Shown: in pieces, positions 13,970 to 58,403 of the stretch
How positions within the stretch are numbered: position 1 is the first letter of the stretch
How the letters are laid out: every line of letters begins with the position of its first letter
Assembly: GCA_965209035.1 (NCBI GenBank)
Contig: OZ242372.1
Span: forward strand, 512,001 to 576,000
Reading direction: 5' to 3'
Length of the DNA: 64,000 nt
From: Gammaproteobacteria bacterium
GTDB taxonomy: Bacteria > Pseudomonadota > Gammaproteobacteria > CBDBNL01 > JAAOII01
The notes under the pieces: generated by a model
The model's database searches: none
What the model saw: the letters and a program-made list of their open reading frames with translations, nothing else
Told to the model about the DNA's origin: nothing
Program-made: the position numbers and the translations under genes

Positions 13970-14077
13970 TTTTGTTCAATAGCCGGCACTAAGGGCAAGG
14001 CACGGGATTGCAGGGTATAAAAACTGCCCGCAAACCCTTGTAAAATCAAGGTTTTTTAAAAAGTTTCCGAAGTCAGG
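13970..14077 (+). mobile_element. Orphan right end of a long-DR (IS1634-like) element
   Basis: GGCACTAAG...GGGTATAAAAAC...AAAATCAAGGTTTTTTAAAAAGTTTCCGAAGTCAGG, homologous to 50780-50901 and 54560-54681. Confidence 0.7.
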
Positions 14078-14186: not shown

Positions 14187-14199
14187 CTTGACTTCGGCA
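14187..14199 (+). mobile_element. Left terminal inverted repeat of the long-DR element
   Basis: CTTGACTTCGGCA matches the inverted tip CCGAAGTCA(A/G)G and the end at 51020. Confidence 0.55.
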
Positions 14200-14244
14200 G
14201 ATTCTTTTGTTTGTTTGCCTTGCACTGCATTATTTTGGAAATTA

Positions 14245-15635: not shown

Positions 15636-18197
15636 ATGATCGATCAGTTAAATTTTTTTCCTGTGCGTCCGGCAAAAGCAATGCGCCGCACACAAAGAGG
15701 CACAGTATCTGTGCTTCTCTTTAATACTCTTAATGTCTTTAATATCTTTAAGGCTTTTCCCGCACCCAATAGGACGCGACGGATGTGCATACCGACTCGC
15801 CTTTACAGTGTGCTGCTGGCGGGGTTGTTCGGTTTGGTCCTGGCAGGTTGTGCCGGCGGCGGTGGCGGTGGTGGCGGTTCCGGCGGTGGTGATCCCCGGG
15901 CTGTTTCCAACATTAGCTCCGTGGTCGGTGAGGAGAATATTCTCGTGAGTTGGACCAATCCGAATCAGACGAATATCACCGGGTTCAATATCACTTGGTT
16001 TGACGCCGCCGATATGAGCGTTGAGGGAATGAAGATCCTTAGTGCCGCCGATGTGCGGCTGCTGACGCCTGAGGCTGACCTGCTGAAGCCCGGGAGTCGG
16101 GTGATGTTCAACATTACGGGTCTAGATAACAGTATCACCTACCGGATCACGATTGCGGTACTTTATAGGGATGGCCCACCTTCGACTTCTGTTTCCGTTC
16201 AAATGGATGATCCGAATGGCGGTGATGATCCCAATTTCCCGGCTGTTTCCAATATCCAAGCCACTGTTAATGGGAACAATATTACCGTGAGTTGGACCAA
16301 TCCGAACCGGGAGAATATCGTCGGGTTCAATATTGCTTGGATCAATGTTGGCGATGATGCCGATGTGACCGATCGCGGGGAAATGGAACTTGATTCTGAC
16401 GAAGCGGGTGTTTCGGTTGCGTCCGGTGCCCAGTCGATGTACACCATTACGGATCTAAACTATGTTGCCACCTATAGCATCACAGTTTCAGTGCGTTATG
16501 CGGGTCAAGATCCCATCCCTTCGGTTCCGGTTGAATACACAACAAACGAAGCGAACCCGGATGATATTGATGGTGATGGTGTGGCGAATGCGGACGATAA
16601 TTGTCCGTCGGCTGCCAATGCGGACCAAGCCAACACGGATGGTGCGGAGGACGGCGGTGATGCCTGTGATGAAGATGATGACAATGATGGCCTGGAAGAC
16701 AGTATGGATGCTTGTCCGACCGGTGTGATTGGCTGGACTTCCAATCCGGCCGCGGACAATGACGGTGACGGTTGTCGTGATAGTGATGAGGATGTGGATG
16801 ACAATAATAACGGTTTGATAGAGCTCCACACTTTGGATGACTTGGCACGGCTGCACGATGATCTGAACGGCGATGGGACGGATGATGACCGTATCCCCGA
16901 GATCACCTCTGTGGGCTCTATGGGCTGCCCGGGTCCGGATGATGATACCGGCGGCTGTGTGGGTTATGAGTTAACTGGCTTGCTCAATTTTAGCGATGCG
17001 GCTTCCTATGCCGCGAGCAGTGGCAACCTGACTGCCTGGACGACCGGCAGCGGCTGGCAGCCGATCGGCTCTTGTTCCACTGTGAATGCTTGCACCTCTT
17101 ATACCGGAATCTTTGACGGTGGGGGTTATACTCTTGCAGATCTGTTCATTGCTGCGGAGGATACTGTCATTGGAGTGGGGTTGTTTGGTGCCTTAACCGG
17201 CGAGATTCAAAATCTGCATATCCGGAATGCGCGTGTCAGTGGCGGTGCCAGTGGTGTGGGCACACTGGCAGGCTATAGCCAGAATGCCCGTTATGAGAAC
17301 CTGTCGGTTACGGGTGGCAGTGTGATGAGTCCATCCGCCGACGGCGTGGGTGGCCTGGTTGGGGATAGTCCGAGTGCTCAAATTCGCTCTGTCAATGTAT
17401 CCGGCGGAGTTGTTTCCGGGAATATTGGGGTTGGCGGAATGATTGGGCGAGGGACTCTTGCGAATATTCATCATGCTTATGTATCCGACGGAAGTATTAC
17501 AGGAACCGGAGCTGGTGTTGGTGGAATGATTGGGAGCGGGGAAGAGATGATGATTCGCTCTGCCGTCGTATCCGGCGGAAGTGTTACAGGAAGCGGAATT
17601 AATGTTGGCGGAATAGTTGGGAGCGGGTTTGTGAATATTCGCTATGCTACTGTGCTCGGCGTAGTTGTTGTTTCCAAGGGATTTTTCAATGCTGGTGGAA
17701 TGATTGGGCAAGGGGTGCGTGCGAATATTCGTCATGTTTATGTGTCCGGCGGAAGCGTTACAGGAAGCGGAAATAGTGCTGGCGGACTAATTGGGAATGC
17801 ACAGCAGTCCACTCAAACTGCTTATTCTTATGCAGCCGGGGGGGTTGTTTCAGGTGCCAGGGGCAGTAATACAATTGGCGGTTTGATTGGCAGCATCATT
17901 GGCACAGCCATCATCACTGCCTCCTATTGGGATAGTGAAACTACCATGCAGTCAGACAGCGCCGATAATTTGGGCGAGGGTCAGACCACTGCCCTGCTGC
18001 AAAACCCGATTACTTTTACAGGCATCTATGCCGACTGGGGTAACTTTTGGTGCGACCCGAACACCGGCGATGAGATGGAAGATGCCACCGAGGCCGGGCC
18101 AGGCGATCCCTTCATTCGTGTCTGGGATCTGGGCACAAGCGGCCAATACCCCGCCTTGAACTGCATGCCGGGCGGCCTCTCGGCGCAAGGCAGATAA
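15636..18197 (+). CDS. Large surface lipoprotein: FN3-like domains, thrombospondin type 3-like Ca-binding repeats, GLUG-type repeats
   Basis: Lipobox LAGC + poly-Gly; two VSWTNP..YxITV FN3-like units; DIDGDG..DNCP repeats; GG(L/M)(V/I)G repeats; paralog of 51719-54121. Confidence 0.8.
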   Translation: MIDQLNFFPVRPAKAMRRTQRGTVSVLLFNTLNVFNIFKAFPAPNRTRRMCIPTRLYSVLLAGLFGLVLAGCAGGGGGGGGSGGGDPRAVSNISSVVGEENILVSWTNPNQTNITGFNITWFDAADMSVEGMKILSAADVRLLTPEADLLKPGSRVMFNITGLDNSITYRITIAVLYRDGPPSTSVSVQMDDPNGGDDPNFPAVSNIQATVNGNNITVSWTNPNRENIVGFNIAWINVGDDADVTDRGEMELDSDEAGVSVASGAQSMYTITDLNYVATYSITVSVRYAGQDPIPSVPVEYTTNEANPDDIDGDGVANADDNCPSAANADQANTDGAEDGGDACDEDDDNDGLEDSMDACPTGVIGWTSNPAADNDGDGCRDSDEDVDDNNNGLIELHTLDDLARLHDDLNGDGTDDDRIPEITSVGSMGCPGPDDDTGGCVGYELTGLLNFSDAASYAASSGNLTAWTTGSGWQPIGSCSTVNACTSYTGIFDGGGYTLADLFIAAEDTVIGVGLFGALTGEIQNLHIRNARVSGGASGVGTLAGYSQNARYENLSVTGGSVMSPSADGVGGLVGDSPSAQIRSVNVSGGVVSGNIGVGGMIGRGTLANIHHAYVSDGSITGTGAGVGGMIGSGEEMMIRSAVVSGGSVTGSGINVGGIVGSGFVNIRYATVLGVVVVSKGFFNAGGMIGQGVRANIRHVYVSGGSVTGSGNSAGGLIGNAQQSTQTAYSYAAGGVVSGARGSNTIGGLIGSIIGTAIITASYWDSETTMQSDSADNLGEGQTTALLQNPITFTGIYADWGNFWCDPNTGDEMEDATEAGPGDPFIRVWDLGTSGQYPALNCMPGGLSAQGR

Positions 18198-46160: not shown

Positions 46161-48254
46161 CTAAGAGGCTTTTTTTGTAATTTCTTCCATTATACTATGC
46201 GGAACTTCCATATACTTGGCAAATTCCATGGAATAACTTGCTCTGCCTTGAGTGGCGGAGCGCAAATCCGTCGCATAACCAAACATTTCCGCCAACGGAA
46301 CCTGTGCCCGAATAATCTTGCCGGCGGGTGATTCTTCCATCGCTTGCACCATTCCGCGCCGACGATTCAAGTCACCGACCACATCTCCCATGTAATCTTC
46401 CGGCGTCACCACCTCTACCTGCATCACCGGTTCCAACAAACCGGGCGATGCCTTCCGCACGGCTTCTCGGATAGCGGTGGAACCCGCTATCTTAAACGCC
46501 ACCTCGCTGGAATCCACATCGTGATAAGACCCCTCATACAATTCAACCCGCACACCCAAAACAGGATAGCCGGCAACCACACCGTTATTCAACTGCTCCT
46601 TAATGCCCTTGTCAACCGCGGGGATGAACTCTCTCGGGATCATTCCGCCGACAATCTTGTTAACAAATTCATAGCCATCTTCAGGCGAGGTCGGCTCTAC
46701 CCGAATCACCACATGACCATATTGGCCGCGTCCGCCCGACTGCTTAATATACTTGCCTTCCACCTTGTCCAAAGCATTGCGAATGAATTCGCGATAAGCC
46801 ACCTGCGGTCTGCCCACATTGGCTTCCACTTTAAATTCGCGCCGCATCCTGTCCACCAGAATCTCCAAATGCAGTTCTCCCATGCCGGAAATAATCGTCT
46901 GACCGGACTCATCATCCACATGCACCCGAAAAGAAGGGTCTTCCAGTGCCAACTTACCCAAGGCAACACTCATCTTCTCCTGGGCATCCTTGGACTTCGG
47001 TTCCACCGCCACGGAAATGACCGGCTCCGGAAACTCCATCTTCTCCAAAATAATCTGCTTATCGATGGCACACAAAGTATCGCCGGTCGTCACATCTTTC
47101 AAGCCGATCGCGGCGGCAATATCCCCCGCTCGCACCTCTTTCACCTCCTGGCGATTATTGGAATGCATCTGCAACAAACGCCCGATGCGCTCTTTCTTAC
47201 TCTTCGTGGAATTGAACACACTGTCACCGCTCTTCAAAACCCCGGAATAAACACGGAAAAAAGTCAGAGTGCCAACAAACGGGTCTGTCGCTATCTTAAA
47301 TGACAGGGCGGAAAAAGGCGCATCGTCATTGCCGGCACGCGTCGCTTCTTTGTCATGCACATCCACCCCCTTAACATCCGGCACCTCGTTGGGCGCGGGC
47401 AGGTAATCCAAAACACCGTCCAACACAGCCTGCACGCCCTTGTTCTTAAAAGCCGAACCGCAGAAAGCGACTACAATTTCTCCCGCCACGGTGCGCTTCT
47501 TCAAACCTCTTTTAATATCGTTCACATCCAACGCCCCGCCTTCCAAATACTTATTCATCAGTTCCTCGTCCGCTTCCGCAGCCGCCTCGATGAGTTGCGA
47601 GCGATAGTCTTCCGCCAGATCGCGCAGATCCCCCGGAATCTCTTCCTCGCGAAAACTGGCACCCTGAGTGGCATCATCCCAGTAGATCGCCTTCTGTCGC
47701 ACCAGATCCACGATGCCCTTAAATTTTTCCTCGCTGCCAATCGCCAACTGCACCGGCACAGGTTTTGCCCCCAATCTGTCTTTAATCTGTTGCACCACAC
47801 GCAAAAAATCCGCCCCCGCCCGATCCATCTTGTTGACAAAGACGATGCGAGGAACATTGTATCTGGTGGCCTGCCGCCAAACCGTCTCCGACTGAGGTTC
47901 CACCCCGGAAGTTGCACAGAACACCACAACCACCCCGTCCAACACCCGCAAAGAGCGTTCCACTTCAATGGTAAAATCCACATGACCCGGCGTGTCTATG
48001 ATATTAATTCTGTGTTTTTCGCGCTTGCCGTCCATCCCTTGCCAAAAGCAGGTAGTTGCAGCCGAGGTGATGGTAATGCCGCGTTCCTGTTCCTGTTCCA
48101 TCCAATCCATAACGGCGGCACCGTCATGCACCTCGCCCATCTTGTGCGAAATACCCGTATAAAAAAGAATACGCTCGGTAGTCGTAGTCTTACCCGCATC
48201 CACATGTGCGGCAATGCCGATGTTTCGGTAAAGTTTTATGGGAGTTTGGCGCAT
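46161..48254 (-). CDS. fusA: Elongation factor G
   Basis: [33 protein letters not shown]. Confidence 0.98.
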
Positions 48255-48256
48255 CT

Positions 48257-48360
48257 ATGAGTTGTTATGAGTTGTTATGAATCGCTATAAATTGTTATGA
48301 ATTGTCCGCCCTGTGTTTAAAAATGCGTCTAAAAATGTGTCTAAAAATGTGTCTAAAAAT
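48257..48360. repeat. Two short tandem arrays (10-nt x5, 12-nt x4) in the rpsG-fusA spacer
   Basis: TATGAGTTGT-like units followed by CTAAAAATGTGT-like units. Confidence 0.75.
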
Positions 48361-48373
48361 AAAACGACAATCG

Positions 48374-48844
48374 TCAGAATCTGAGATGCGAAAAGGCACG
48401 GCTGGCTTCCGCCATCTTATGCACATCTTGTTTTTTCTTGATAGCAGCTCCGCGCTCATCCAAAACATCCAAGAATTCGGACGCCAGAGACTTATCCATC
48501 TCCTGATTCTTGCGTCCGCGCGCCGCCTGAATGAGCCAACGCATCGCCAGGGTCGTCCGCCGTGCGGAACGAATTTCTACAGGCACAGAATAGGTGGCAC
48601 CGCCGACACGCCGCGACTTAACTTCCACCACAGGTCGCAGATCGTCTATGACCCGGGTGAACAAATCCAACGGCTTCATTTTCTTTTTCTTGGTGGCCCT
48701 CTCCAAAGCATCATAAACAATCCTTTCCGCCACAGACTTCTTGCCGTTCCACATGATCATATTAATGAAGCGTGCCAACTCCACGCTTTCATATTGCGGA
48801 TCCGGGACTATAGCACGTTTTTCCGCAGGCTTACGACGGGACAT
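48374..48844 (-). CDS. rpsG: 30S ribosomal protein S7
   Basis: GKKS.AE.I.Y, VEVKSRRVGGATY.VP, HKMAEA.RAF. Confidence 0.97.
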   Translation of the reverse strand: MSRRKPAEKRAIVPDPQYESVELARFINMIMWNGKKSVAERIVYDALERATKKKKMKPLDLFTRVIDDLRPVVEVKSRRVGGATYSVPVEIRSARRTTLAMRWLIQAARGRKNQEMDKSLASEFLDVLDERGAAIKKKQDVHKMAEASRAFSHLRF

Positions 48845-48867
48845 AATAAGATAAAAAAACTAAGTAA

Positions 48868-49245
48868 CTAAGCGGCTTTGCCTTTCTTGGTGCCGTATTT
48901 GGAACGCCCCTGCTTGCGGTCACTGACCCCGGCCGTATCCAAACTACCCCGAATCGTATGATAACGCACCCCGGGCAAATCCTTAACACGACCACCGCGA
49001 ATCAAAACCACCGAATGCTCCTGCAAGTTATGTCCTTCACCTCCTATATAGGAAGTGACCTCCTGCCCGTTCGTCAGGCGCACCCGACAAACCTTACGCA
49101 ACGCGGAATTGGGCTTCTTTGGCGTGGTAGTATAAACACGCAAACAGACACCCCGCTTCTGCGGACATTGCTGCAATGCCGGAACATTGCTTTTAACCGG
49201 CTTATCCTTGCGCGGCGAACGCGTCAATTGATTAATCGTAACCAT
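48868..49245 (-). CDS. rpsL: 30S ribosomal protein S12
   Basis: [22 protein letters not shown]. Confidence 0.98.
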
Positions 49246-49402
49246 AATGACTATTTTATAGAAAGAAAAATAGCGAAAAGTAGCAAAATCACCGAAATTC
49301 TGTGTTTATCGCAGGTTTTCCAAAGATTCCCCGAAACTCACTCCCTTCAAAAGTCCGCACAAGATACAATATGAATATGTTCCAAAAATTCACAATGTCC
49401 AA

Positions 49403-50554
49403 ATGAGCCTCAAATGCGGTCTAGTCGGTCTGCCCAATGTGGGAAAATCCAGCCTGTTCAACGCCCTCACCAATTCGCATGTGAGCGCGGAAAACTTTGC
49501 CTTCTGCACCATAGACCCGCACATGGGCATTGTGGAGGTCCCGGACGAGCGGCTGGCACAACTGGCATCCGTTGTCAAACCGCAACGCATCGTCCCCGCA
49601 ACCATTGAGTTCACGGATATTGCCGGACTGGTGCAAGGTGCCTCCAAAGGCGAAGGTCTCGGCAACCAATTCCTCGCCCATGTCCGCGAAACGGACGCCA
49701 TCGCGCACTTGTTACGCTGCTTCAAAAACGAAGCGGTCACACATGTTCACAACAAAACAGACCCCTGGCATGATCTTCAAATCATCAATACCGAACTCTG
49801 CATAGCGGACCTGACAACCGCCGAAAACTCACTGCAAAAACACGAACGCAAGATAAAAAGCGGTGACAAAGAAGCCATCGCGCTCACCGCCCTCCTCAAA
49901 AATAAAGTCCTGCCCGTATTGAGCGAAGGGAAATTCTTGCGAGAAGCAACATTCACCAAAGAAGAAAAAGAAACCCTAAAATCCTTCGGCTTTCTCACAA
50001 TGAAGCCCACCATTTATGTGCTAAATATCAGCGACGAACCCGCACAAAATATCAACACAGACGCCATAGAAGATCTGGCACGCAAAGAAGGAAGTCAAAC
50101 CATAAAACTCAACATCAAATTGGAAGCCGAACTCAGCGAACTGGGACCGGAAGATCGTGCCGAATTCCTTGCCGTAAGCGGGGAAAACAGGGACGAAGAC
50201 AAAGACACAGACACATCCGATGCCAATAGCGGCGAAAAGACTCCCACAGAAGATGCCCTGGGCGGTTTCATCCGCTGTTGCTATGCGCTGCTCAACCTGC
50301 ACACCTTTTTCACAGCCGGCCCCAAAGAACTGCGCGCTTGGACCATCCCCCGCGGGACCACCGCCCTGGCCGCGGCCGGCAAGATCCACAACGACTTTAT
50401 CAAACACTTCATCCGCGCCGAAGTCATCGCCTTTGACCGCTACATAGAATGCGGCGGCGAACAACCCGCCAAAGCCAAAGGGCATCTCCGCCTGGAAGGC
50501 AAAGATTATGTTGTGGCAGACGGAGATCTGGTTTACTTCCGGACGAGTGCGTGA
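49403..50554 (+). CDS. ychF: Redox-regulated ATPase YchF
   Basis: GLPNVGKS, FCTIDP, DIAGLV.GAS.GEGLGN.FL, EGKDYVV.DGD. Confidence 0.96.
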   Translation: MSLKCGLVGLPNVGKSSLFNALTNSHVSAENFAFCTIDPHMGIVEVPDERLAQLASVVKPQRIVPATIEFTDIAGLVQGASKGEGLGNQFLAHVRETDAIAHLLRCFKNEAVTHVHNKTDPWHDLQIINTELCIADLTTAENSLQKHERKIKSGDKEAIALTALLKNKVLPVLSEGKFLREATFTKEEKETLKSFGFLTMKPTIYVLNISDEPAQNINTDAIEDLARKEGSQTIKLNIKLEAELSELGPEDRAEFLAVSGENRDEDKDTDTSDANSGEKTPTEDALGGFIRCCYALLNLHTFFTAGPKELRAWTIPRGTTALAAAGKIHNDFIKHFIRAEVIAFDRYIECGGEQPAKAKGHLRLEGKDYVVADGDLVYFRTSA

Positions 50555-50744
50555 TTTTTTTATGAAATTCGAAGTTTGTATCGCCCAAACATAAAGAGTA
50601 AAAAATGATACTAATTTTTATACGGCAGGACGCAGTGAATATCCGACTTCTGTTCTCACCCACTCGAAAAAATGCCATGTATAAAAAACAATAATTCCGA
50701 ACCCAATAATGTTCTCTCACATTACTTCATACCGGATATTTAAG

Positions 50745-50901
50745 TTCATTGCATTTTACAAACAGTTCAATTACAACCCAAACAAACCCGCTTTGTTCCA
50801 TCACCGGCACTAAGTGCAAAAGAACGAGGGCTGATAGGGTATAAAAACTCCCCTCAATCCCTTATAAAACAAGGATTTTTTAAAAAGTTTCCGAAGTCAA
50901 G
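50745..50901 (+). mobile_element. Orphan right end of the long-DR (IS1634-like) element
   Basis: Aligns with 54535-54681 and 13970-14077; ends TTTCCGAAGTCAAG. Confidence 0.7.
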
Positions 50902-50974
50902 GGCAAGGTGGTCGCGGGACTACGCCTTAATGAATGCCCGAACAATCCGGCGTTATGAATGTCCCCCTCGGCTC

Positions 50975-51019
50975 ATTTCTTCTAACGACCACCCTTCTTC
51001 TTTTGTCAGCATCTTATAA
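50975..51019 (+). repeat. 45-bp direct repeat, left copy (putative target duplication)
   Basis: ATTTCTTCTAACGACCACCCTTCTTCTTTTGTCAGCATCTTATAA, 1 mismatch to 54682-54726; abuts the IR exactly. Confidence 0.92.
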
Positions 51020-51072
51020 CTTGACTTCGGAAAGAATTTTTTAGATTTTTAAAAACTCTTGTATTTATAAGG

Positions 51073-51350
51073 CGCATGATCTCATAAAGGTTCCGGACTC
51101 TGAGTTCGGCATTGTGCGTCATCAGATCAAGGAGCCGGCGGTGTATGATCCCACCCAGTTTCGGACTTTTGTTGTTTTTGTAAAAACCGGATCGGCGAGA
51201 GTTATTTGTGAGCATCGCGGGGATCTGCTAAATGATATCAACGCATCCCTCTCATTTCAACTCCGCGGGGCAGCCGCACCCGCATAGTGCAACTGTGTCG
51301 CAAGCGAGAGTGCCGCGACAGATTTTGAACAACAGGCCGCCGCCCGCACC
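51073..51350. mobile_element. IS481 relics: left end (+, 51073-51141) abutting an internally deleted copy (-, 51142-51350)
   Basis: 51073-51141 matches 14245-14312; 51142-51238 matches the reverse complement of the IS right end; 51246-51350 resembles the reverse complement of 14410-14530; a further sliver at about 51453-51490. Confidence 0.75.
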
Positions 51351-51718
51351 GCGGAGACCGGAGTAGTCGGCAGTCCGGCTTACTCGCCTTATATTTTTAT
51401 TCTTGCGGCACTTGAACCCGGCACCCTCCTGTTTGCGGGTTCCTTAATAGACGGACTTATTTTTGCAAAAACCGGATCAGCGAGAGTTGTTAAGGGAAAA
51501 ACGCGTATCAGCCAGCATAAAAGATCCGGGTGCCTGCCCATAGATTTCGAATAATAATAGATGAGCGGCAGAGACTAAGAATAAGTGGAAAGTTGGAAGT
51601 TGGGCCGGCAGTCGTCTTATTTGTCGTGCTCTGCCCCGCCCTGCCTCGTCCTGTCCCGCCCCGATCTGCCGGTCCGTTCCGGGGCTTCCCTCTTGCCGGC
51701 CTCTCTTACCGGCCCCTC

Positions 51719-54121
51719 TTACCGGTCTTGCGCCGAGAGGCCGCCCGGCAGGCAATTCAGAGCCGGGTATTGTGTGCTGTTGCCCAGATTCCAGACGCGG
51801 ACGAAGGGGGCGGGCTCCTCGGTGGTGCTTTCCGCACCGGTGTTCGGGTTGCACCAAGCATTGCCCCAGTCGGCATAGATGCTCCCGGCAAACTCGGTCG
51901 GCGATTGCAAGGCTGTCGTGTTATGACCCTCGCCCAAATTACCGTCACTCATAGACTGCATGGTGGTTTGATTGTCCCAATAGGTGGCAATGACATTGGT
52001 CTCAGGATTGGTGTTGCCGATCAATCCGCCGACAGTACCCTCACCTGAAACAAGCCCGGGGGCGGCATAAGAATAATTAATTTGAGCTTTTTCCCCATAC
52101 CCAACCAGGCCGCCAGCAGCACCATAAGTCTCGCCGCCGCTCCCGGAAACAATTCCGCCGAGCACATAGGCATAGCGAATATCCGCATTCCTACCAAACC
52201 CAACCAGGCCGCCAACATGAACAAGCCCGGAAACATTTCCGCCGGACACGGACGCATAGCGAATATCCGCATTCTCACCATGCCCAACCAGGCCGCCAGC
52301 AAAATCCCCGGAAACATCCACACCGGACACGAACGCATAGCGAATATCCGCATTTAGACCATTCCCAGCCAGGCCGCCAGCTCTATTCTCGAAAGCATTC
52401 CCGGCAACACTTCCGCCGGACACGGACGCATTGCGAATATCCGCATTCTCACCATACCCAACCAGGCCGCCCACACCCACATTAGTGGCATTGCCTCTGA
52501 CATCCGCATTCCGGAGATGCAGATTTTGGATATCGCCGGTTAAGGCACCAAACAACCCCACTCCATAGGCAGTATTGTTCGCAGAGATGAACAGATCGGC
52601 AATACGATAACCGCCGCCGTCAAAGATTCCGGTATAAGAGGTGCAAACATTCACAACGGAACAAGAGCCGATCGGCTGCCAACCGCTGCCGGTCGTCCAA
52701 ACAACTTGATTGCCACTGCCCGCGGCATAGGAATCCGCATCGCTAAAATTCAACGAGCGAGTTAATTCATAACCCACACAGCCGCCGTCATCGTCATCCG
52801 GGCAACCCATAGAACCCACAGAGGTGATCTCGGGGATAGGGCCATCATCCGCCCCATCGCCGTTCAGATCATCGCGCAGCCGCGCCAAGTCATCCAAAGT
52901 GTGGATCTCGATCAAGCCATTATTATCGTCATCCACATCCTCTGTCAAGGTAGTATTCACATCGGTCCTGCAGCCGGCAGATAATCTGTCCGGTGCTCCG
53001 TCTCCATCCGTGTCGGCGCTCGCACAGGCATCCGTCACAAACGCATCGCCCGGATCCGCCACGCCATCATTGTCATCGTCCGAATCTTCATCTGTGTCGC
53101 GACAGCCGTCACGGTCATGGTCCGCGGACGCATTGGAAGTCCAGCCGGTAACACCGGTCGGGCAAAGATCTGTTATATCCTCCACACCGTCATTGTCATC
53201 ATCTTCATCACAGGCATCACCGCCGTCATCCGCATTGTCCGTGTTGGCTTGGTCCGCATTGGCAACCAACGGACAATTATCGTTATCATCATCCCTATCG
53301 TCATTGTCATCGTCCGAATCTTCATCTGTGTCGCGACAGCCGTCATCGTCATGGTCCGCGGACGCATTGGAAGTCCAGCCGGTAACACCGGTCGGACAAG
53401 TATCGGCCGTATCCGCCACGCCATCATTGTCATCGTCATCATCACAGGCATCACCGCCGTCATCCGCATTGTCCGTGTTGGCTTGGTCCGCATTGGCAAC
53501 CAGCGGACAATTATCGATATTATTATCCTCACCGTCATCGTCAATATCTGTGCCTACACCCGCTCCCGCTCCCGTTGTACTTGACACAGGAGGTGAGGCC
53601 ACGATAATGCCGCTCTCATAACGCACCGCAATCGTGATGTGATAGGTGATGTTATTGATTAAGCCCGTAATGTTGTAGATGACCCGAGCACGCGGCGCAA
53701 CATCCGCCATGGCAGAATTAAGTTCTTTTGTGCCGCCATCGCTTGCATTGTCACGGCGTGTGCTAATAACGAACCCGGTGATATTCATCCGGTTCGGATT
53801 AGTCCAACCCACGAGAATATAATCCTCACCGGCCAGAGTCTGCATATTGAAAACAGCCGGGAAATTCTGAGGAACGGGATCGCCGCCGCCGATGCTGCTG
53901 CTGATGCTGCTGCTGCCACAACCTGTCAGGACCAAACCGAACATACCCGCCAGCAGCACACCGTAAAAACGAGCCGGTATGTGCATCCGTCGTGCCCTAC
54001 TGGGTTCGGGAAAAGCCTTAAAGACATTAAAGGTATTAAGGAGACGCACAGATACCGCGCCTCTTTGTTTGCGGCACATTGCTTTCGCCGACCGCACAGG
54101 AAAAAAGTGCAACTGATTCAC
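51719..54121 (-). CDS. Large surface lipoprotein (FN3-like, TSP3-like, GLUG-type repeats), paralog of 15636-18197
   Basis: Lipobox LTGC + poly-Ser; one FN3-like unit; duplicated [15 protein letters not shown] block; shared [15 protein letters not shown] and YADWGN..QYPALNC.PGGLSAQ segments. Confidence 0.8.
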
Positions 54122-54379
54122 TACTTCCTATCATTATTAATTGGAATAATGTACCTTATTATTACATTAAATGAGAGTTGAGGAGTAAAATATGAGCATA
54201 AATGCCGGTAAATACAAGAAAAAAGAGGGTTATTTTCTGTTCGCGACCTTCAGAATGGAAGTTTTGGCAGATCCCCAGGCTGTTTGCAATGGCTCTTGAG
54301 GCAAATGGCAAATTTTTTGAAGTGCATAGGTTGTCAAGAGTATAATTCCCTTATTTAATTTTCAAAATCATGTGTATTC

Positions 54380-54523
54380 TGTATGATCCCACCTATTTTC
54401 GGACTTTTTTTGTTTTTGTAAAAACCGGATCGGCGAGAGTTGTTTGTGAGCATAATGGGGACGTCCGAGATGATACCAAGCCAGCCATGCGATGAACTTG
54501 GCATTGAATGCCGGCATATCCTT
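54380..54523 (-). mobile_element. IS481 right-end relic
   Basis: TGTATGATCCCACC...GCCGGCATATCCTT aligns with the reverse complement of the last ~145 bp of the intact IS. Confidence 0.8.
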
Positions 54524-54681
54524 GGGGGACAGCAGTGCATTCTACAGGCCGTTCAACTAAAACCCAAACAACCCGCTCTGTTGGATCACAAACACTAAGT
54601 GCAAGCCAGGGCTGGCAGGGTATAAAAACGGCTCGCAAACCCTTATAAAATCAAGGTTTTTAATAAGTTTCCTAAGTCAAG

Positions 54682-54726
54682 ATTTTTTCTAACGACCACC
54701 CTTCTTCTTTTGTCAGCATCTTATAA
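54682..54726 (+). repeat. 45-bp direct repeat, right copy
   Basis: Matches 50975-51019 with 1 mismatch. Confidence 0.92.
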
Positions 54727-54826
54727 TATATTCTTGTAACCGGTGCTGCACCGACTATTTGAATTCGTGTGAACATAAAGCACCGGCTACTTGAATTTAG
54801 ATAAAAAAACATTAATAGTATTACAT

Positions 54827-57175
54827 ATGCCTAACATTACTCGCGAACAAAAAGAAAAATATCTGAAGCAATTATCCGCGGAGGAATTTAAGGCAAAGGT
54901 GATTCGTCCGCTTTTTGAAAAAATGGGCTACGGCAGCGGTAAAAACATTGACAGAAGTTCGCAAGATTCCGCGAGTGTTTTATTTATAGACAAGGACAGA
55001 TTGGAGGATATCAGAATTATTCGAGTGATCCCGCATCTCAAGAACATCAATATGGTCAAGACAAGCAAAGAAGAAGTGGAATCTCTAATTCAAACTGTTC
55101 GCTCCGCTTGGCAAGAAAACCTTCGTTTGGAAAATAGCAACAAGAAAGTTCACTGCGATGATATTATTATTTGTTCCACGGGAAAAATTAATGATAAGGC
55201 GGAAAACTATATCAAAAAACAGACAAGCGGTAAAGAACCGAGATTATTCGATTTACAGCGTCTGATCGGCTTAGTGGATAATCATTGCGAGGAGATATGG
55301 AAAAAAGTATCACCGGATGTCATTTTATATTACAACTTCTTGCGGGGTAACATTGAGCAAGACCTCAAAGATCCTTTGGCAACATCCGTGGATAACGAGC
55401 ATTATATTCATCTTAATCTCGGCAGACACATAGCCAAACCTAAAAAGATTGACGGGGAAATAAAACGAGTCCCCGAGTACACGAGTATTGAAGAAACGGA
55501 ACTTCTCCGGCAGAAACATCCAAAATGTATCATTCGCGGCGACGCTGGGATGGGTAAAAGCACTATTTTGCGGCGGTTGGTCTATCAGATTACTCAATAT
55601 TCTCTTCAGGATGAGGGGATGAAACCGATTTTGTTGCTGCCTCAAGATGTGGAAGTATTTGCCGATGCCGATGCGGATACTTTTGTTAAGAAGTGCGATG
55701 CTCATTTCAAAAAATGTATGAATCAACCCGAACAAGTATTCAGTCAGTCCGACTTTGAGCAAGGCAAGGTAGTTCTTTTAGCAGATGCTCTGGATGAAAT
55801 TGCGGATGACCGGCAAGAAAAATTTATAAAACTCCTCAATGAACTGTCTAAAAGATATCCAAAGGTCAAGATCATTTGCACATCAAGACCGGGACAACGC
55901 GAGAAAAAAATGGTTCGCGATGAAGGATATGTGCGGTATGATGTCTCTCATATCAGTTGGCGTCAGGCTCAAAAATTGCTTTCTATTATGAAAAAAGAAG
56001 GGGACCTCCCCCGGTCTATTGCTTCGGAAGTTCTGCGTCGGATCAACTCCATCCATGGCTTGGATCTCACGCCGCTTCTTGTTAAGGTTTTTGCGGCAAC
56101 TTTGACATACTCGCGTCAGGATATACCCGCAAACATTACCGAGTTGTTTAGCAAGTATACCGAACTGATGCTTGGCAGGTGGGATCAAGACAAGGGGTTT
56201 GAGCAGCAATATGAGGCAAACTTAAAGATTTTCCTAATGAAAAAATTGGCGGGATGGATGCATGACAACCGGGTCAGTCACATATCGGAATACAATTTCA
56301 AAAATATCATTGAAGAGGAGATGAAGTCGCGCGGCTACGAAATTAAAATAGAAGAGATTTGCACCGAAATGTTGGAACGATCCGGGCTATTGAAGCGGCG
56401 CGGCGATGCGATACTTTTTACACATCATTTGTTACAAGAATTTTTTGCCGGGATTGGTATATCGGACTTAGACAAAGATGAGATATTCAAAAAATTTGGC
56501 AACCGCTGGTGGACGCGCCCTTTGATGTTTTATTTCGGCAATCGACCGGACGCCATACACAGGCTGGAACAAGCACAAGAAAAAGTATCAACGCGTAAAA
56601 AGTTGGATCCCTATGAAGTTTCCTTGGCGATAGGATTATCATTACAAGCATGCTATCTTTCCGAAGTTTCTACAAGACTGGATATATGGAAAACATTGAT
56701 AAACAACATTGCTATGATCAGCACGCCCCAAGACAAATCTAAAGTTCTATTTCCTCTTTTTGATTCTATGTTCCCTTATGCTGTTTTGCGCGAAGCCGTC
56801 CCTTTGTCTGTCTTAAAAGATCCTTGGAATCAAGAGGAGCTAACCGAATGGTCAAAAACTGCGGATGAGGGTAAGTTTTGCTGGTTTCTCATCGCCTTGA
56901 TGGAAACCGGTTGTTTTGAGAAAGCACACCAACTCATTAAAAAAACAAAGAAATGGAAAAATTCGTTTTATCCGTTTATTTTGTATTGGCATTCCGGGTT
57001 TCTTATGAGGGTATCTGCAATCTCACCGGAACAAAAGAAAACGGTCAATTTAATACGCACCGAATTGGATAAAAGAAATGGTGTGGAATTAATGGAGTTT
57101 CGACGGGAAATTGTAAGAGAGATTGACACCTATTTTTCTTCACCCGATAAAAGCCTGAAAAATGATTCCAAATGA
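54827..57175 (+). CDS. NACHT-family STAND NTPase with N-terminal Mrr/REase-like domain (apparently degenerate)
   Basis: Walker A IIRGDAGMGKST, Walker B LLADALDE, ICTSRP, TPLL, FTHHLLQEFFAG; N-terminus EEFK..VIRPLFEKMGY ... IIICSTGKIN; start taken at ATG 54827. Confidence 0.85.
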   Translation: MPNITREQKEKYLKQLSAEEFKAKVIRPLFEKMGYGSGKNIDRSSQDSASVLFIDKDRLEDIRIIRVIPHLKNINMVKTSKEEVESLIQTVRSAWQENLRLENSNKKVHCDDIIICSTGKINDKAENYIKKQTSGKEPRLFDLQRLIGLVDNHCEEIWKKVSPDVILYYNFLRGNIEQDLKDPLATSVDNEHYIHLNLGRHIAKPKKIDGEIKRVPEYTSIEETELLRQKHPKCIIRGDAGMGKSTILRRLVYQITQYSLQDEGMKPILLLPQDVEVFADADADTFVKKCDAHFKKCMNQPEQVFSQSDFEQGKVVLLADALDEIADDRQEKFIKLLNELSKRYPKVKIICTSRPGQREKKMVRDEGYVRYDVSHISWRQAQKLLSIMKKEGDLPRSIASEVLRRINSIHGLDLTPLLVKVFAATLTYSRQDIPANITELFSKYTELMLGRWDQDKGFEQQYEANLKIFLMKKLAGWMHDNRVSHISEYNFKNIIEEEMKSRGYEIKIEEICTEMLERSGLLKRRGDAILFTHHLLQEFFAGIGISDLDKDEIFKKFGNRWWTRPLMFYFGNRPDAIHRLEQAQEKVSTRKKLDPYEVSLAIGLSLQACYLSEVSTRLDIWKTLINNIAMISTPQDKSKVLFPLFDSMFPYAVLREAVPLSVLKDPWNQEELTEWSKTADEGKFCWFLIALMETGCFEKAHQLIKKTKKWKNSFYPFILYWHSGFLMRVSAISPEQKKTVNLIRTELDKRNGVELMEFRREIVREIDTYFSSPDKSLKNDSK

Positions 57176-58403
57176 ATTAAAACAACTCGTCGAAAACGGT
57201 GAGAATTCCAAAGTTGAATTTAAAGACGATCAAGTAAACGGTGAGAATTTGGCACGTGCGATGGTCGCTTTTTTAAATTCCAACGGCGGGCGGATATTCT
57301 TAGGTGTTGAGGATAATGGCAACATCAAAGGTATGGTTATCACAAATAAGGCAATGGAAGAGAAAGTGATGAGTTGGGCTCACAATTTAATTCAACCGCA
57401 GTTCACCCCGAACTGGGAGACGGTGATGATGGGCAATGGCAAACGAGTAGCGATTATTGAGTTACCAAGCCAGGCACCGGACAAACCCTATAAAGCAAGG
57501 GTAGGCAAGGTATGGAAAATTTTCACAAGAAAGGGAAGTCAAATAAGAGAAGCATCCCGAGAAGAAGAAGCCCGCCTTTATTATGCTTCACCGATTGGCC
57601 ATCGTTATGAGACCAAACCTATTGTCGGCAGAAACCTAAAAGACCTGAGCATGGATAGGATAGAAACCTATTTTCGTAAGAGAGGCATTCCAAAATACCT
57701 GCCCCTCCAAAACAATACCAAACAATGGGAGTCCCTGCTAATGAATACCGACTATGCGGTAGAATTTAACCGGCAAGTAACTCCGAATGTGACGGGGATG
57801 CTATTATTTGGTGTGTCTCCATACCAGTTTATGAAGCAATCCGGTATGAGAATAGTTGCGTTCTCGAAGACGGAGAAAGATTATGATTACGAAGGAGATG
57901 ATTTTCGCAGTGCCCTGATACCCGTCCAAAAAGAAGACGGCGAGATCATAGAGCCGGGATTATTTGAGTTGGCATTGCAATTTATTAACCGATTTGTCCG
58001 GCGAAACCGCCTAAACAAAAAAACAGGAAGACGCGTAGAAGAAACAGATTATCCGGTAGAAGTGATTCGCGAAGTTTTGGCAAACGCAATCGTACATCGC
58101 GAGTATGCCCTTGTGCAACAAGAAATTCAAGTTCATATTTACTCCGATAGAATGGAAGTGATTTCACCGGGAGGACTGCCGGACGGCGTCACCGAAGAAA
58201 AGATAAGAAATGGTGTTACCGCAGCGCGTAACCCCACACTGCGAGATGCTATGAGCGCATTTGGATATGTCGATAAAATTGGTATGGGTATTCCCACAAA
58301 AATTATCAAGGGAATGCAAGAACATAACGGGACCGAACCCGAAATCATTCCCAAAGAGGACCTTTTTACTGTGCGTTTATTTAATCGGCATTCAGCCCGC
58401 TAA
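57162..58403 (+). CDS. Schlafen/AlbA_2 domain + HATPase_c_4-like domain protein
   Basis: GENSKVEFK, VAFLNSNGG.IFLGVEDNG, REVLANAIVHREY, ISPGGLP, RNP.L, GMGI; overlaps the NACHT gene by 14 nt. Confidence 0.85.
   Translation: MIPNELKQLVENGENSKVEFKDDQVNGENLARAMVAFLNSNGGRIFLGVEDNGNIKGMVITNKAMEEKVMSWAHNLIQPQFTPNWETVMMGNGKRVAIIELPSQAPDKPYKARVGKVWKIFTRKGSQIREASREEEARLYYASPIGHRYETKPIVGRNLKDLSMDRIETYFRKRGIPKYLPLQNNTKQWESLLMNTDYAVEFNRQVTPNVTGMLLFGVSPYQFMKQSGMRIVAFSKTEKDYDYEGDDFRSALIPVQKEDGEIIEPGLFELALQFINRFVRRNRLNKKTGRRVEETDYPVEVIREVLANAIVHREYALVQQEIQVHIYSDRMEVISPGGLPDGVTEEKIRNGVTAARNPTLRDAMSAFGYVDKIGMGIPTKIIKGMQEHNGTEPEIIPKEDLFTVRLFNRHSAR

Follow-up and report, generated by a model that had tools for sequence, protein, structure and literature searches.

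A putative transposase-less cargo cassette with IS1634-family ends and a 45-bp target-site duplication in a gammaproteobacterium-like genome

The 64,000-nucleotide stretch of DNA considered here (positions 512,001 to 576,000 of contig OZ242372.1, assembly GCA_965209035.1 of a Gammaproteobacteria bacterium; hereafter the window, whose own numbering we use) contains a 3,662-bp segment, at 51020-54681, that possesses both termini of an insertion sequence (IS), a lipoprotein gene, and no more than the last codons of a transposase gene. We refer to this cassette as E1 and to a sister cassette located elsewhere in the same genome, at C1:1878104-1884824, as E2 (C1 denotes genome coordinates). Our data are best explained, with a probability of roughly three in four, by the assumption that E1 derives from an IS1634-family element, that it is non-autonomous and bears cargo, being in this sense a mobile insertion cassette (MIC), and that it was inserted at its present site by a transposase provided in trans.

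E1 is flanked by a 45-bp direct repeat whose two copies, at 50975-51019 and 54682-54726, differ by a single mismatch (T/C); the left copy reads ATTTCTTCTAACGACC…CATCTTATAA and ends with TTATAA against the left tip. The repeat joins, to the base, the tip CTTGACTTCGGAAA (51020-51033) on the left side and the tip TTTCCTAAGTCAAG (54668-54681) on the right side, and these two tips are complementary to each other at 13 of 14 positions. The first-pass annotation of the window had described a 45-bp duplication abutting the tips of both terminal inverted repeats (IRs), and this description is fully borne out. The 40-bp core of the 45-mer is present exactly twice in the window, with no occurrence expected from 100 shuffles of the sequence, and the tip motif (with up to two mismatches) is found six times against an expectation of 0.62; none of the 100 shuffles reached the observed count for either. 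A BLAST search with the region recovered no third copy of the 45-mer in the 2.24-Mb genome, its sole other match being a 99-bp relative with 74% identity at C1:1371808. The possibility that the 45-mer is a dispersed repeat, which had been named as grounds for abandoning the proposed cassette, was thereby checked and does not apply, as only two copies exist in the genome. The high repeat content of this genome is the only point that speaks for regarding the IRs and the 45-mer as a coincidence or as a dispersed repeat; the shuffle controls argue against it, and so does the fact that a genuine IS, of which six copies are intact, has these same tips; the intact copies themselves are bounded by long duplications. 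We consider this explanation refuted.

The parent of E1 came to light when the whole genome was scanned for the tip motif and subsequently searched by BLAST with a full IS copy, the search for the ends and for an autonomous, transposase-encoding copy that the annotation had recommended. Six intact, full-length elements share their 14-bp tips with E1: four identical copies of 1,986 bp (IS_A; C1:97125, 139400, 802347 and 2175607) and two copies of 1,971 bp (IS_B; C1:735886 and 1613439) that are about 90% identical to the former. E1 matches the tips of these elements at 14 of 14 positions on its left side and at 13 of 14 on its right side, and the similarity of its ends to the full-length IS extends beyond the terminal IRs, comprising 53 bp at the left end and 156 bp at the right one. 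Each intact copy carries one long open reading frame (ORF), and the 598-amino-acid transposase encoded by the 1,986-bp copies matches the NCBIfam model NF033559, "IS1634 family transposase," with an E-value of 9.8e-90 and 301.9 bits (cut-off 100 bits). The runner-up family, IS4, scored 30.9 bits, and the Pfam domain DDE_Tnp_1 was matched with an E-value of 4.1e-10. Both the size of the IS and its tip, CTTGACTT, fit the published description of the IS1634 family, for which 1,500-2,000 bp and ends of the type C-----YT are listed in Table 1 of a family review (PMC2266710). The assignment to IS1634, proposed from the tips and the long duplication, consequently stands. The parent is a long-duplication-type member of this family, with which every feature that we tested agrees, and it has the look of an active element.

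Relatives of the transposase were found in 7 of 150 other genomes of the same class, all with an identity of no more than 34%; this search comprised 151 genomes including the source genome, and its tally of 8 of 151 takes in the unpublished genomes G044 and G145, on which no other result reported here rests. A scan of genome contigs with the transposase yielded no other relatives of the IS, and IS DNA was not detected in the four other genomes of the taxonomic family, where one 34-bp match (E-value 6e-4) is regarded as noise. The elongation factor EF-G of the host is at best about 72% identical to its counterparts from Gammaproteobacteria, and we therefore speak of a gammaproteobacterium-like host.

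Long duplications are a consistent property of this IS. Ten elements are bounded on both sides, namely the six intact IS copies, two MITE-like derivatives (MITE, miniature inverted-repeat transposable element), E2, and E1, and in all ten a long duplication abuts both tips. It is perfect in the four IS_A copies (169, 190, 212 and 561 bp) and in the two IS_B copies (247 and 159 bp). One MITE-like element (C1:1620742; about 430 bp) is flanked by a duplication of 295 bp with one mismatch, and the other (C1:1142381-1142811; 431 bp) by a direct repeat of about 860 bp whose copies are 85.5% identical; the duplications of E2 and E1 amount to 80 bp with eight mismatches and 45 bp with one mismatch, respectively. 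Since all ten bounded elements possess long duplications, the 45-bp repeat of E1 fits the rule for this IS. The view that long target duplications of variable length are a trait of IS1634 and IS1549 is thus corroborated for the present IS as well. The published duplications of these two elements range from 8 to 514 bp, whereas most IS1634-family members generate AT-rich duplications of 5-6 bp, as stated in the family review (PMC2266710); the 45 bp of E1 fall inside the published range. Two duplications in this genome exceed its maximum of 514 bp, the perfect one of 561 bp at C1:2175607 and, if it is an old target duplication, the decayed one of about 860 bp at C1:1142381.

Inside its duplications, E1 begins with the left IS1634-family end (51020-51072, plus strand), composed of the 14-bp terminal IR and subterminal sequence and 98% identical to IS_B, and it terminates with the right end (54526-54681, plus strand), which comprises the last ~20 transposase codons (…ILQAVQLKPKQPALLDHKH and the stop), the subterminal region, and the terminal IR. 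Both IS termini are kept in inverted orientation. About 1.78 kb of the approximately 1.97-kb IS, including nearly the whole transposase gene, are gone, and the interior is otherwise made up of the lipoprotein gene and of fragments of an IS481-like element. The element that we call "IS481-like" bears this name because its best NCBIfam match, NF033577 (IS481; E-value 1.3e-50), reaches 172.6 bits and hence lies under the curated cut-off of 224 bits. Its pieces within E1 all lie on the plus strand: a 69-bp fragment of one tip (51074-51142; 93% identical to a full copy), a fragment of about 100 bp of the other tip, on the side of the transposase 3' end (51142-51248), which is of a type that also occurs 3' of many lipoprotein paralogs, a third piece of 35 bp belonging to this latter type (51457-51491), at which homology with E2 restarts, and a 151-bp fragment (54373-54523) in the same orientation as the one at 51142-51248 and joined directly to the right IS end.

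The cargo gene (51719-53986, minus strand, stop codon at 51719-51721) is intact and encodes a protein of 755 amino acids with a signal peptide ending in the lipobox LTGC. The protein matches the Pfam families Glug (1.3e-10) and TSP_3 (4.4e-10) as well as, weakly and below its cut-off, fn3 (5.3e-4). A product of this size was overstated when it was called "giant." It is the sole long ORF with Pfam support inside E1, and in this sense the earlier statement that the lipoprotein gene is the only intact gene holds; among the other internal ORFs, the three that were scanned (51006-51215, 53981-54181 and 54393-54638) yielded no Pfam family. About 200 bp upstream of the lipoprotein gene (54156-54356) are conserved at 87-91% at at least four other loci (C1:44980, 123503, 864377 and 1423305) but are absent from E2, and a plus-strand ORF of 35 codons (54193-54300) lies within this stretch.

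Mobilization in trans is supported by E2. This cassette measures 6,721 bp, has flanks unrelated to those of E1, and is bounded by its own 80-bp duplication, which ends with TTATAA. The left 45 bp of E1 and E2 are 100% identical. Their right ends are 93% identical to each other, whereas that of E1 is 87% identical to IS_A and 83-85% identical to IS_B; the right ends of the two cassettes are mutual closest relatives and have derived indels in common. The IS481-like fragment located just inside the right end in both shows 97% identity between E1 and E2, as compared with about 88% to the majority of other copies. In E2, position ~321 of the IS481-like element is joined to position 1356 of the IS at an arbitrary, non-tip breakpoint, and the right junction of E1 corresponds to this very junction minus 665 bp located between two CCTT sequences. 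Paralogous lipoprotein coding sequences are present in the same orientation in both cassettes; in E2, the cargo is an open frame of 1,672 amino acids in which two lipoprotein units follow each other in tandem and the C-terminus is frameshifted. Because the duplication of E2 has decayed further (8 of 80 positions vs. 1 of 45), we regard it as the older insertion.

As E2 shares with E1 the ends, the junction architecture and a paralogous cargo and yet has its own duplication, it is most likely that a transposase-less ancestor bearing this cargo underwent one or more moves in trans. The simplest account that the comparison offers is that a transposase-less, lipoprotein-bearing common ancestor became inserted at two sites, and that each copy subsequently suffered separate deletions. 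E1 would accordingly have carried its cargo already, and lacked a transposase, when it landed. Under this assumption, a DDE transposase supplied in trans would have inserted E1 at an intergenic site upstream of an Mrr-NACHT gene. The target would have been cut with the long stagger that characterizes the parent IS, and repair would have left the 45-bp duplication, with one tip joined beside TTATAA and the other 45 bp away beside a T. The resident transposases can presumably still move E1.

Several observations weigh against this explanation. On the left side, the inner junctions of E1 are not the same as those of E2, and the two sets may have arisen independently; the loss of 97 bp at a TGTAT microhomology and of 285 bp between two IS481-like pieces would convert an E1-like arrangement into the left side of E2, a derivation that is plausible although less convincing than the one on the right side. 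The right IR of E1 deviates from the consensus tip at one position. The sublineage to which the ends of E1 and E2 belong has no autonomous copy in this genome; among autonomous elements, the most similar right ends are 83-87% identical to that of E1. The interior of E1 is a mosaic: when it was divided into 24 windows of 150 bp, the best non-self match in the genome lay in E2 for only 7 of them, and the others match different paralog arrays with identities of 88.6-98.7%. Due to this mosaic structure, interior homology alone does not prove that the cargo traveled with the ends. An empty-site allele was not found either: a BLAST search with the right flank against 30 relatives returned only the genome itself (no other genome is available for the genus), an exact 28-nt junction pattern had no match in metagenome contigs, and in three public runs (assembled contigs of one sample) no joint among those listed skips E1. 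The contigs of these three runs stop at 51009 and resume from 54697, both positions lying within the 45-mers, and thus break at the repeats, and a fourth run (raw reads with the same species label) covers the region only about once, mostly with reads of 90-95% identity, and is uninformative for this site. The balance for mobilization of E1 in trans is therefore one of a second-site sister that has a separate duplication and has derived junctions in common with E1 against a mosaic interior and a missing empty site. The proposal of a non-autonomous, IS1634-like cassette mobilized in trans finds support in E2 with its separate location and duplication; an empty-site allele to go with it was not recovered.

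The mosaic interior has to be seen against the background of the lipoprotein family to which the cargo belongs. Proteins of this FN3/TSP3/GLUG type are encoded in 66 blocks that together occupy about 200 kb, or 9.2% of the chromosome. Two members lie in the window (15636-18197, plus strand, and the E1 cargo at 51719-53986, minus strand). The paralogs are mosaics of one another at the 150-bp scale, and since the windows of E1 match different paralog arrays, we infer frequent gene conversion. Fragments of the IS481-like element accompany these genes: besides 21 full copies, the genome contains 62 fragments of one tip (the L-tip) and 27 of the other, and for 23 of the 62 L-tip fragments a lipoprotein block lies no more than 600 bp away; 7.9 would be expected, and the highest number reached in 1000 randomizations was 17. 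Solo fragments of 65-150 bp of one IS481-like tip are often situated between lipoprotein paralogs. Judged from this arrangement, the tip fragments could supply homology for the exchange of lipoprotein sequences.

It is this combination of a mosaic interior with the enrichment of IS481-like fragments that keeps a different explanation alive, although we consider it unlikely. An autonomous IS could have inserted and made the 45-bp duplication, its interior could then have been destroyed by IS481-like insertions and deletions, and a lipoprotein unit could have been swapped in by homologous recombination at the IS481-like tips; the likeness of E2 would in this case result from gene conversion between two decayed copies, rather than from transposition. 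The abundance of IS481-like copies and tip fragments in the genome and their accumulation beside lipoprotein blocks suit such a scenario, as do the few windows (7 of 24) in which E1 is closest to E2, the differing left inner junctions, and the absence of a counterpart in E2 to 54132-54379, the segment upstream of the E1 gene. Conversion between E1 and E2, however, would need crossovers within the 45-53 bp of homology at the left end, and it is not only the interiors but also the ends of the two cassettes that are mutual closest relatives. Moreover, the right junction of E1 is the 665-bp deletion form of an arbitrary breakpoint present in E2, a structure unlikely to arise twice, and the MITE-like elements with long duplications of their own demonstrate that derivatives of this IS do move even when they lack a transposase. 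We therefore continue to favor insertion of a preformed cassette by a transposase acting in trans.

One might also suppose that the two ends of E1 stem from separate insertions that bracket resident DNA, in the manner of a decayed composite element, with the 45-mer being of other local origin. Solo right ends of this IS are indeed common: they are found in the window at 50747-50901 and 14012-14077 and elsewhere at C1:1852464, 1414370 and 1283826, and the first of them ends 118 bp before the left tip of E1. Yet the 45-mers adjoin both tips to the base and are found nowhere else in the genome, the junctions carry the TTATAA/…AT signature that single insertion events of this IS leave at their repeat ends, and the whole architecture recurs in E2. 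An origin from two remnants is hence disfavored, and we rate it as very improbable.

The solo right ends, to which a further one at C1:2095 can be added, are remnants of older insertions. That at 14012-14077 comprises 64 bp. That at 50747-50901 (155 bp, plus strand) lies outside the cassette, is 77-80% identical to other right ends, and shows that earlier insertions had occurred at the spot where E1 now resides. A candidate for a second junction between an IS end and an IS481-like fragment, at 14187-14200 beside a solo right end, was dropped, only 12 bases being tip-like.

The junctions of the bounded elements reveal an asymmetry. In 8 of the 10, one tip adjoins TATAA, a motif with a background frequency of 0.00087 per position, and in five the exact hexamer TTATAA is present; the ninth element has TCTAA at its tip, and the decayed tenth has no such motif. 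The anchored tip is the left IS end in some elements and the right one in others. Since the motif lies inside perfect duplications, it must be regarded as target sequence and not as part of the IS. The opposite tip adjoins T in all ten elements and AT in seven of them. Read toward the tips, E1 has …CTTATAA|CTTGAC at its left junction and …AAAAAAT|CTTGAC at its right one, and thus displays the same signature as the other elements. These findings suggest that two uncoupled strand transfers, one anchored and one roaming, take place rather than cuts with a fixed stagger. They likewise suggest that the anchored transfer occurs at the ordinary AT-rich hexamer of the family, TTATAA, and that the second tip, at a distance of 45 to ~860 bp, is always joined beside a T. 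Such an asymmetry may explain the long duplications of the IS1634 type, for which, according to the 2008 family review (PMC2266710), nobody had put forward a mechanistic model. Perfect duplications measuring 159-561 bp and anchored by TATAA at a single tip offer a testable clue to this question of mechanism.

Two of the intact copies have inserted into recognizable genes or elements. The 1,971-bp copy at C1:735886-737856 interrupts a lipoprotein paralog, 247 bp of whose coding sequence it has duplicated; it entered at CTTATAA, where the lipoprotein gene of the window reads CTCATAA. The 1,986-bp copy at C1:139400-141385 is nested in an IS481-like element, of which 190 bp are duplicated.

Where it landed, E1 lies in what was, after reconstruction of the target, intergenic DNA about 65-110 bp upstream of a gene for a Mrr_cat-NACHT STAND protein and downstream of ychF, rpsL and fusA. 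No RNA genes that could have served as the target were detected over 48000-56000 (Rfam at E ≤ 0.1, ARAGORN). Directly past the cassette, defense-like genes occupy 54791-58403; they encode a 794-amino-acid protein with matches to Mrr_cat and a NACHT/STAND NTPase, whose gene is the one just mentioned as lying about 65-110 bp from the insertion, and a 413-amino-acid Schlafen AlbA_2/HATPase_c_4 protein.

Among known elements, the parent IS most resembles IS1634 from Mycoplasma mycoides and IS1549 from Mycobacterium smegmatis, with which it shares the transposase family, the size range, and the C-----YT tip. All of them generate long and variable duplications, here of 45 to ~860 bp as compared with the range published for the two known elements in the review cited above. 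The parent IS differs from them in its gammaproteobacterium-like host and by a transposase that is at most 34% identical to the relatives found in the 150 genomes of the class, and the anchoring of one tip at TATAA is a feature to be set beside those of IS1634 and IS1549.

With regard to E1 itself, the presence of both IS ends, the absence of a transposase, the passenger gene, the parent-type duplication, and the autonomous parents in the same genome are all reminiscent of MICs. The cassette MIC231 reportedly has IS231, a member of the IS4 family, as its parent, and is said to generate a duplication of about 10-12 bp. E1 is unlike MIC231 in its IS1634-family parent, in the 45-80-bp duplications seen in E1 and E2, in a cargo that belongs to an expanded lipoprotein family, and in its IS481-like borders. 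Going by comparison with its relatives in the genome, on which its putative mobilization in trans also rests, E1 is best filed as a mobile insertion cassette, a class for which MIC231 is cited in the family review (PMC2266710). A limited search of open-access text found no published MIC derived from the IS1634 family. Cargo is moved by Tn6097 of Paracoccus, a composite of two copies of ISPfe2, an IS1634-family element, with 6-bp duplications (PMC3281130). Like E1, Tn6097 couples cargo unrelated to transposition with IS1634-family components, in its case the transposase and in that of E1 the ends; Tn6097, however, consists of two complete IS copies and has 6-bp duplications, whereas E1 has bare ends, no transposase, and a duplication of 45 bp.

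It had further been proposed that cassettes of this kind spread adhesin-like genes around the genome. This part of the proposal goes too far: only 2 of the 66 lipoprotein blocks (those in E1 and E2) lie within IS1634-type cassettes, the cargo is a mosaic shaped by gene conversion, and the lipoprotein family is similarly expanded, with 21-73 matches, in each of the four remaining genomes from this taxonomic family, none of which yielded the IS. Outside this taxonomic family, the lipoproteins were detected in only 1 of the 26 genomes searched. The cassette thus represents a minor route for the relocation of individual lipoprotein genes; it is not what built the family. It may also serve as a landing pad, into which lipoprotein alleles are swapped by recombination at the IS481-like tips, to be moved afterwards by transposition. 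The combined picture, in which this landing pad is joined with asymmetric duplications that arise from uncoupled strand transfers, is offered tentatively, and we would sooner bet against it than on it.

E1 is a clean natural instance of a cassette in which the ends of an IS1634-family element enclose cargo in place of a transposase. With autonomous parents, MITE-like derivatives and two versions of the cargo-bearing cassette residing in one genome of 2.2 Mb, mobilization in trans becomes directly testable. For the bacterium itself, the exchange of lipoprotein sequences outlined above may amount to a surface-protein repertoire that is driven by recombination, to which transposition of the cassette would contribute as a minor means of relocating single members.

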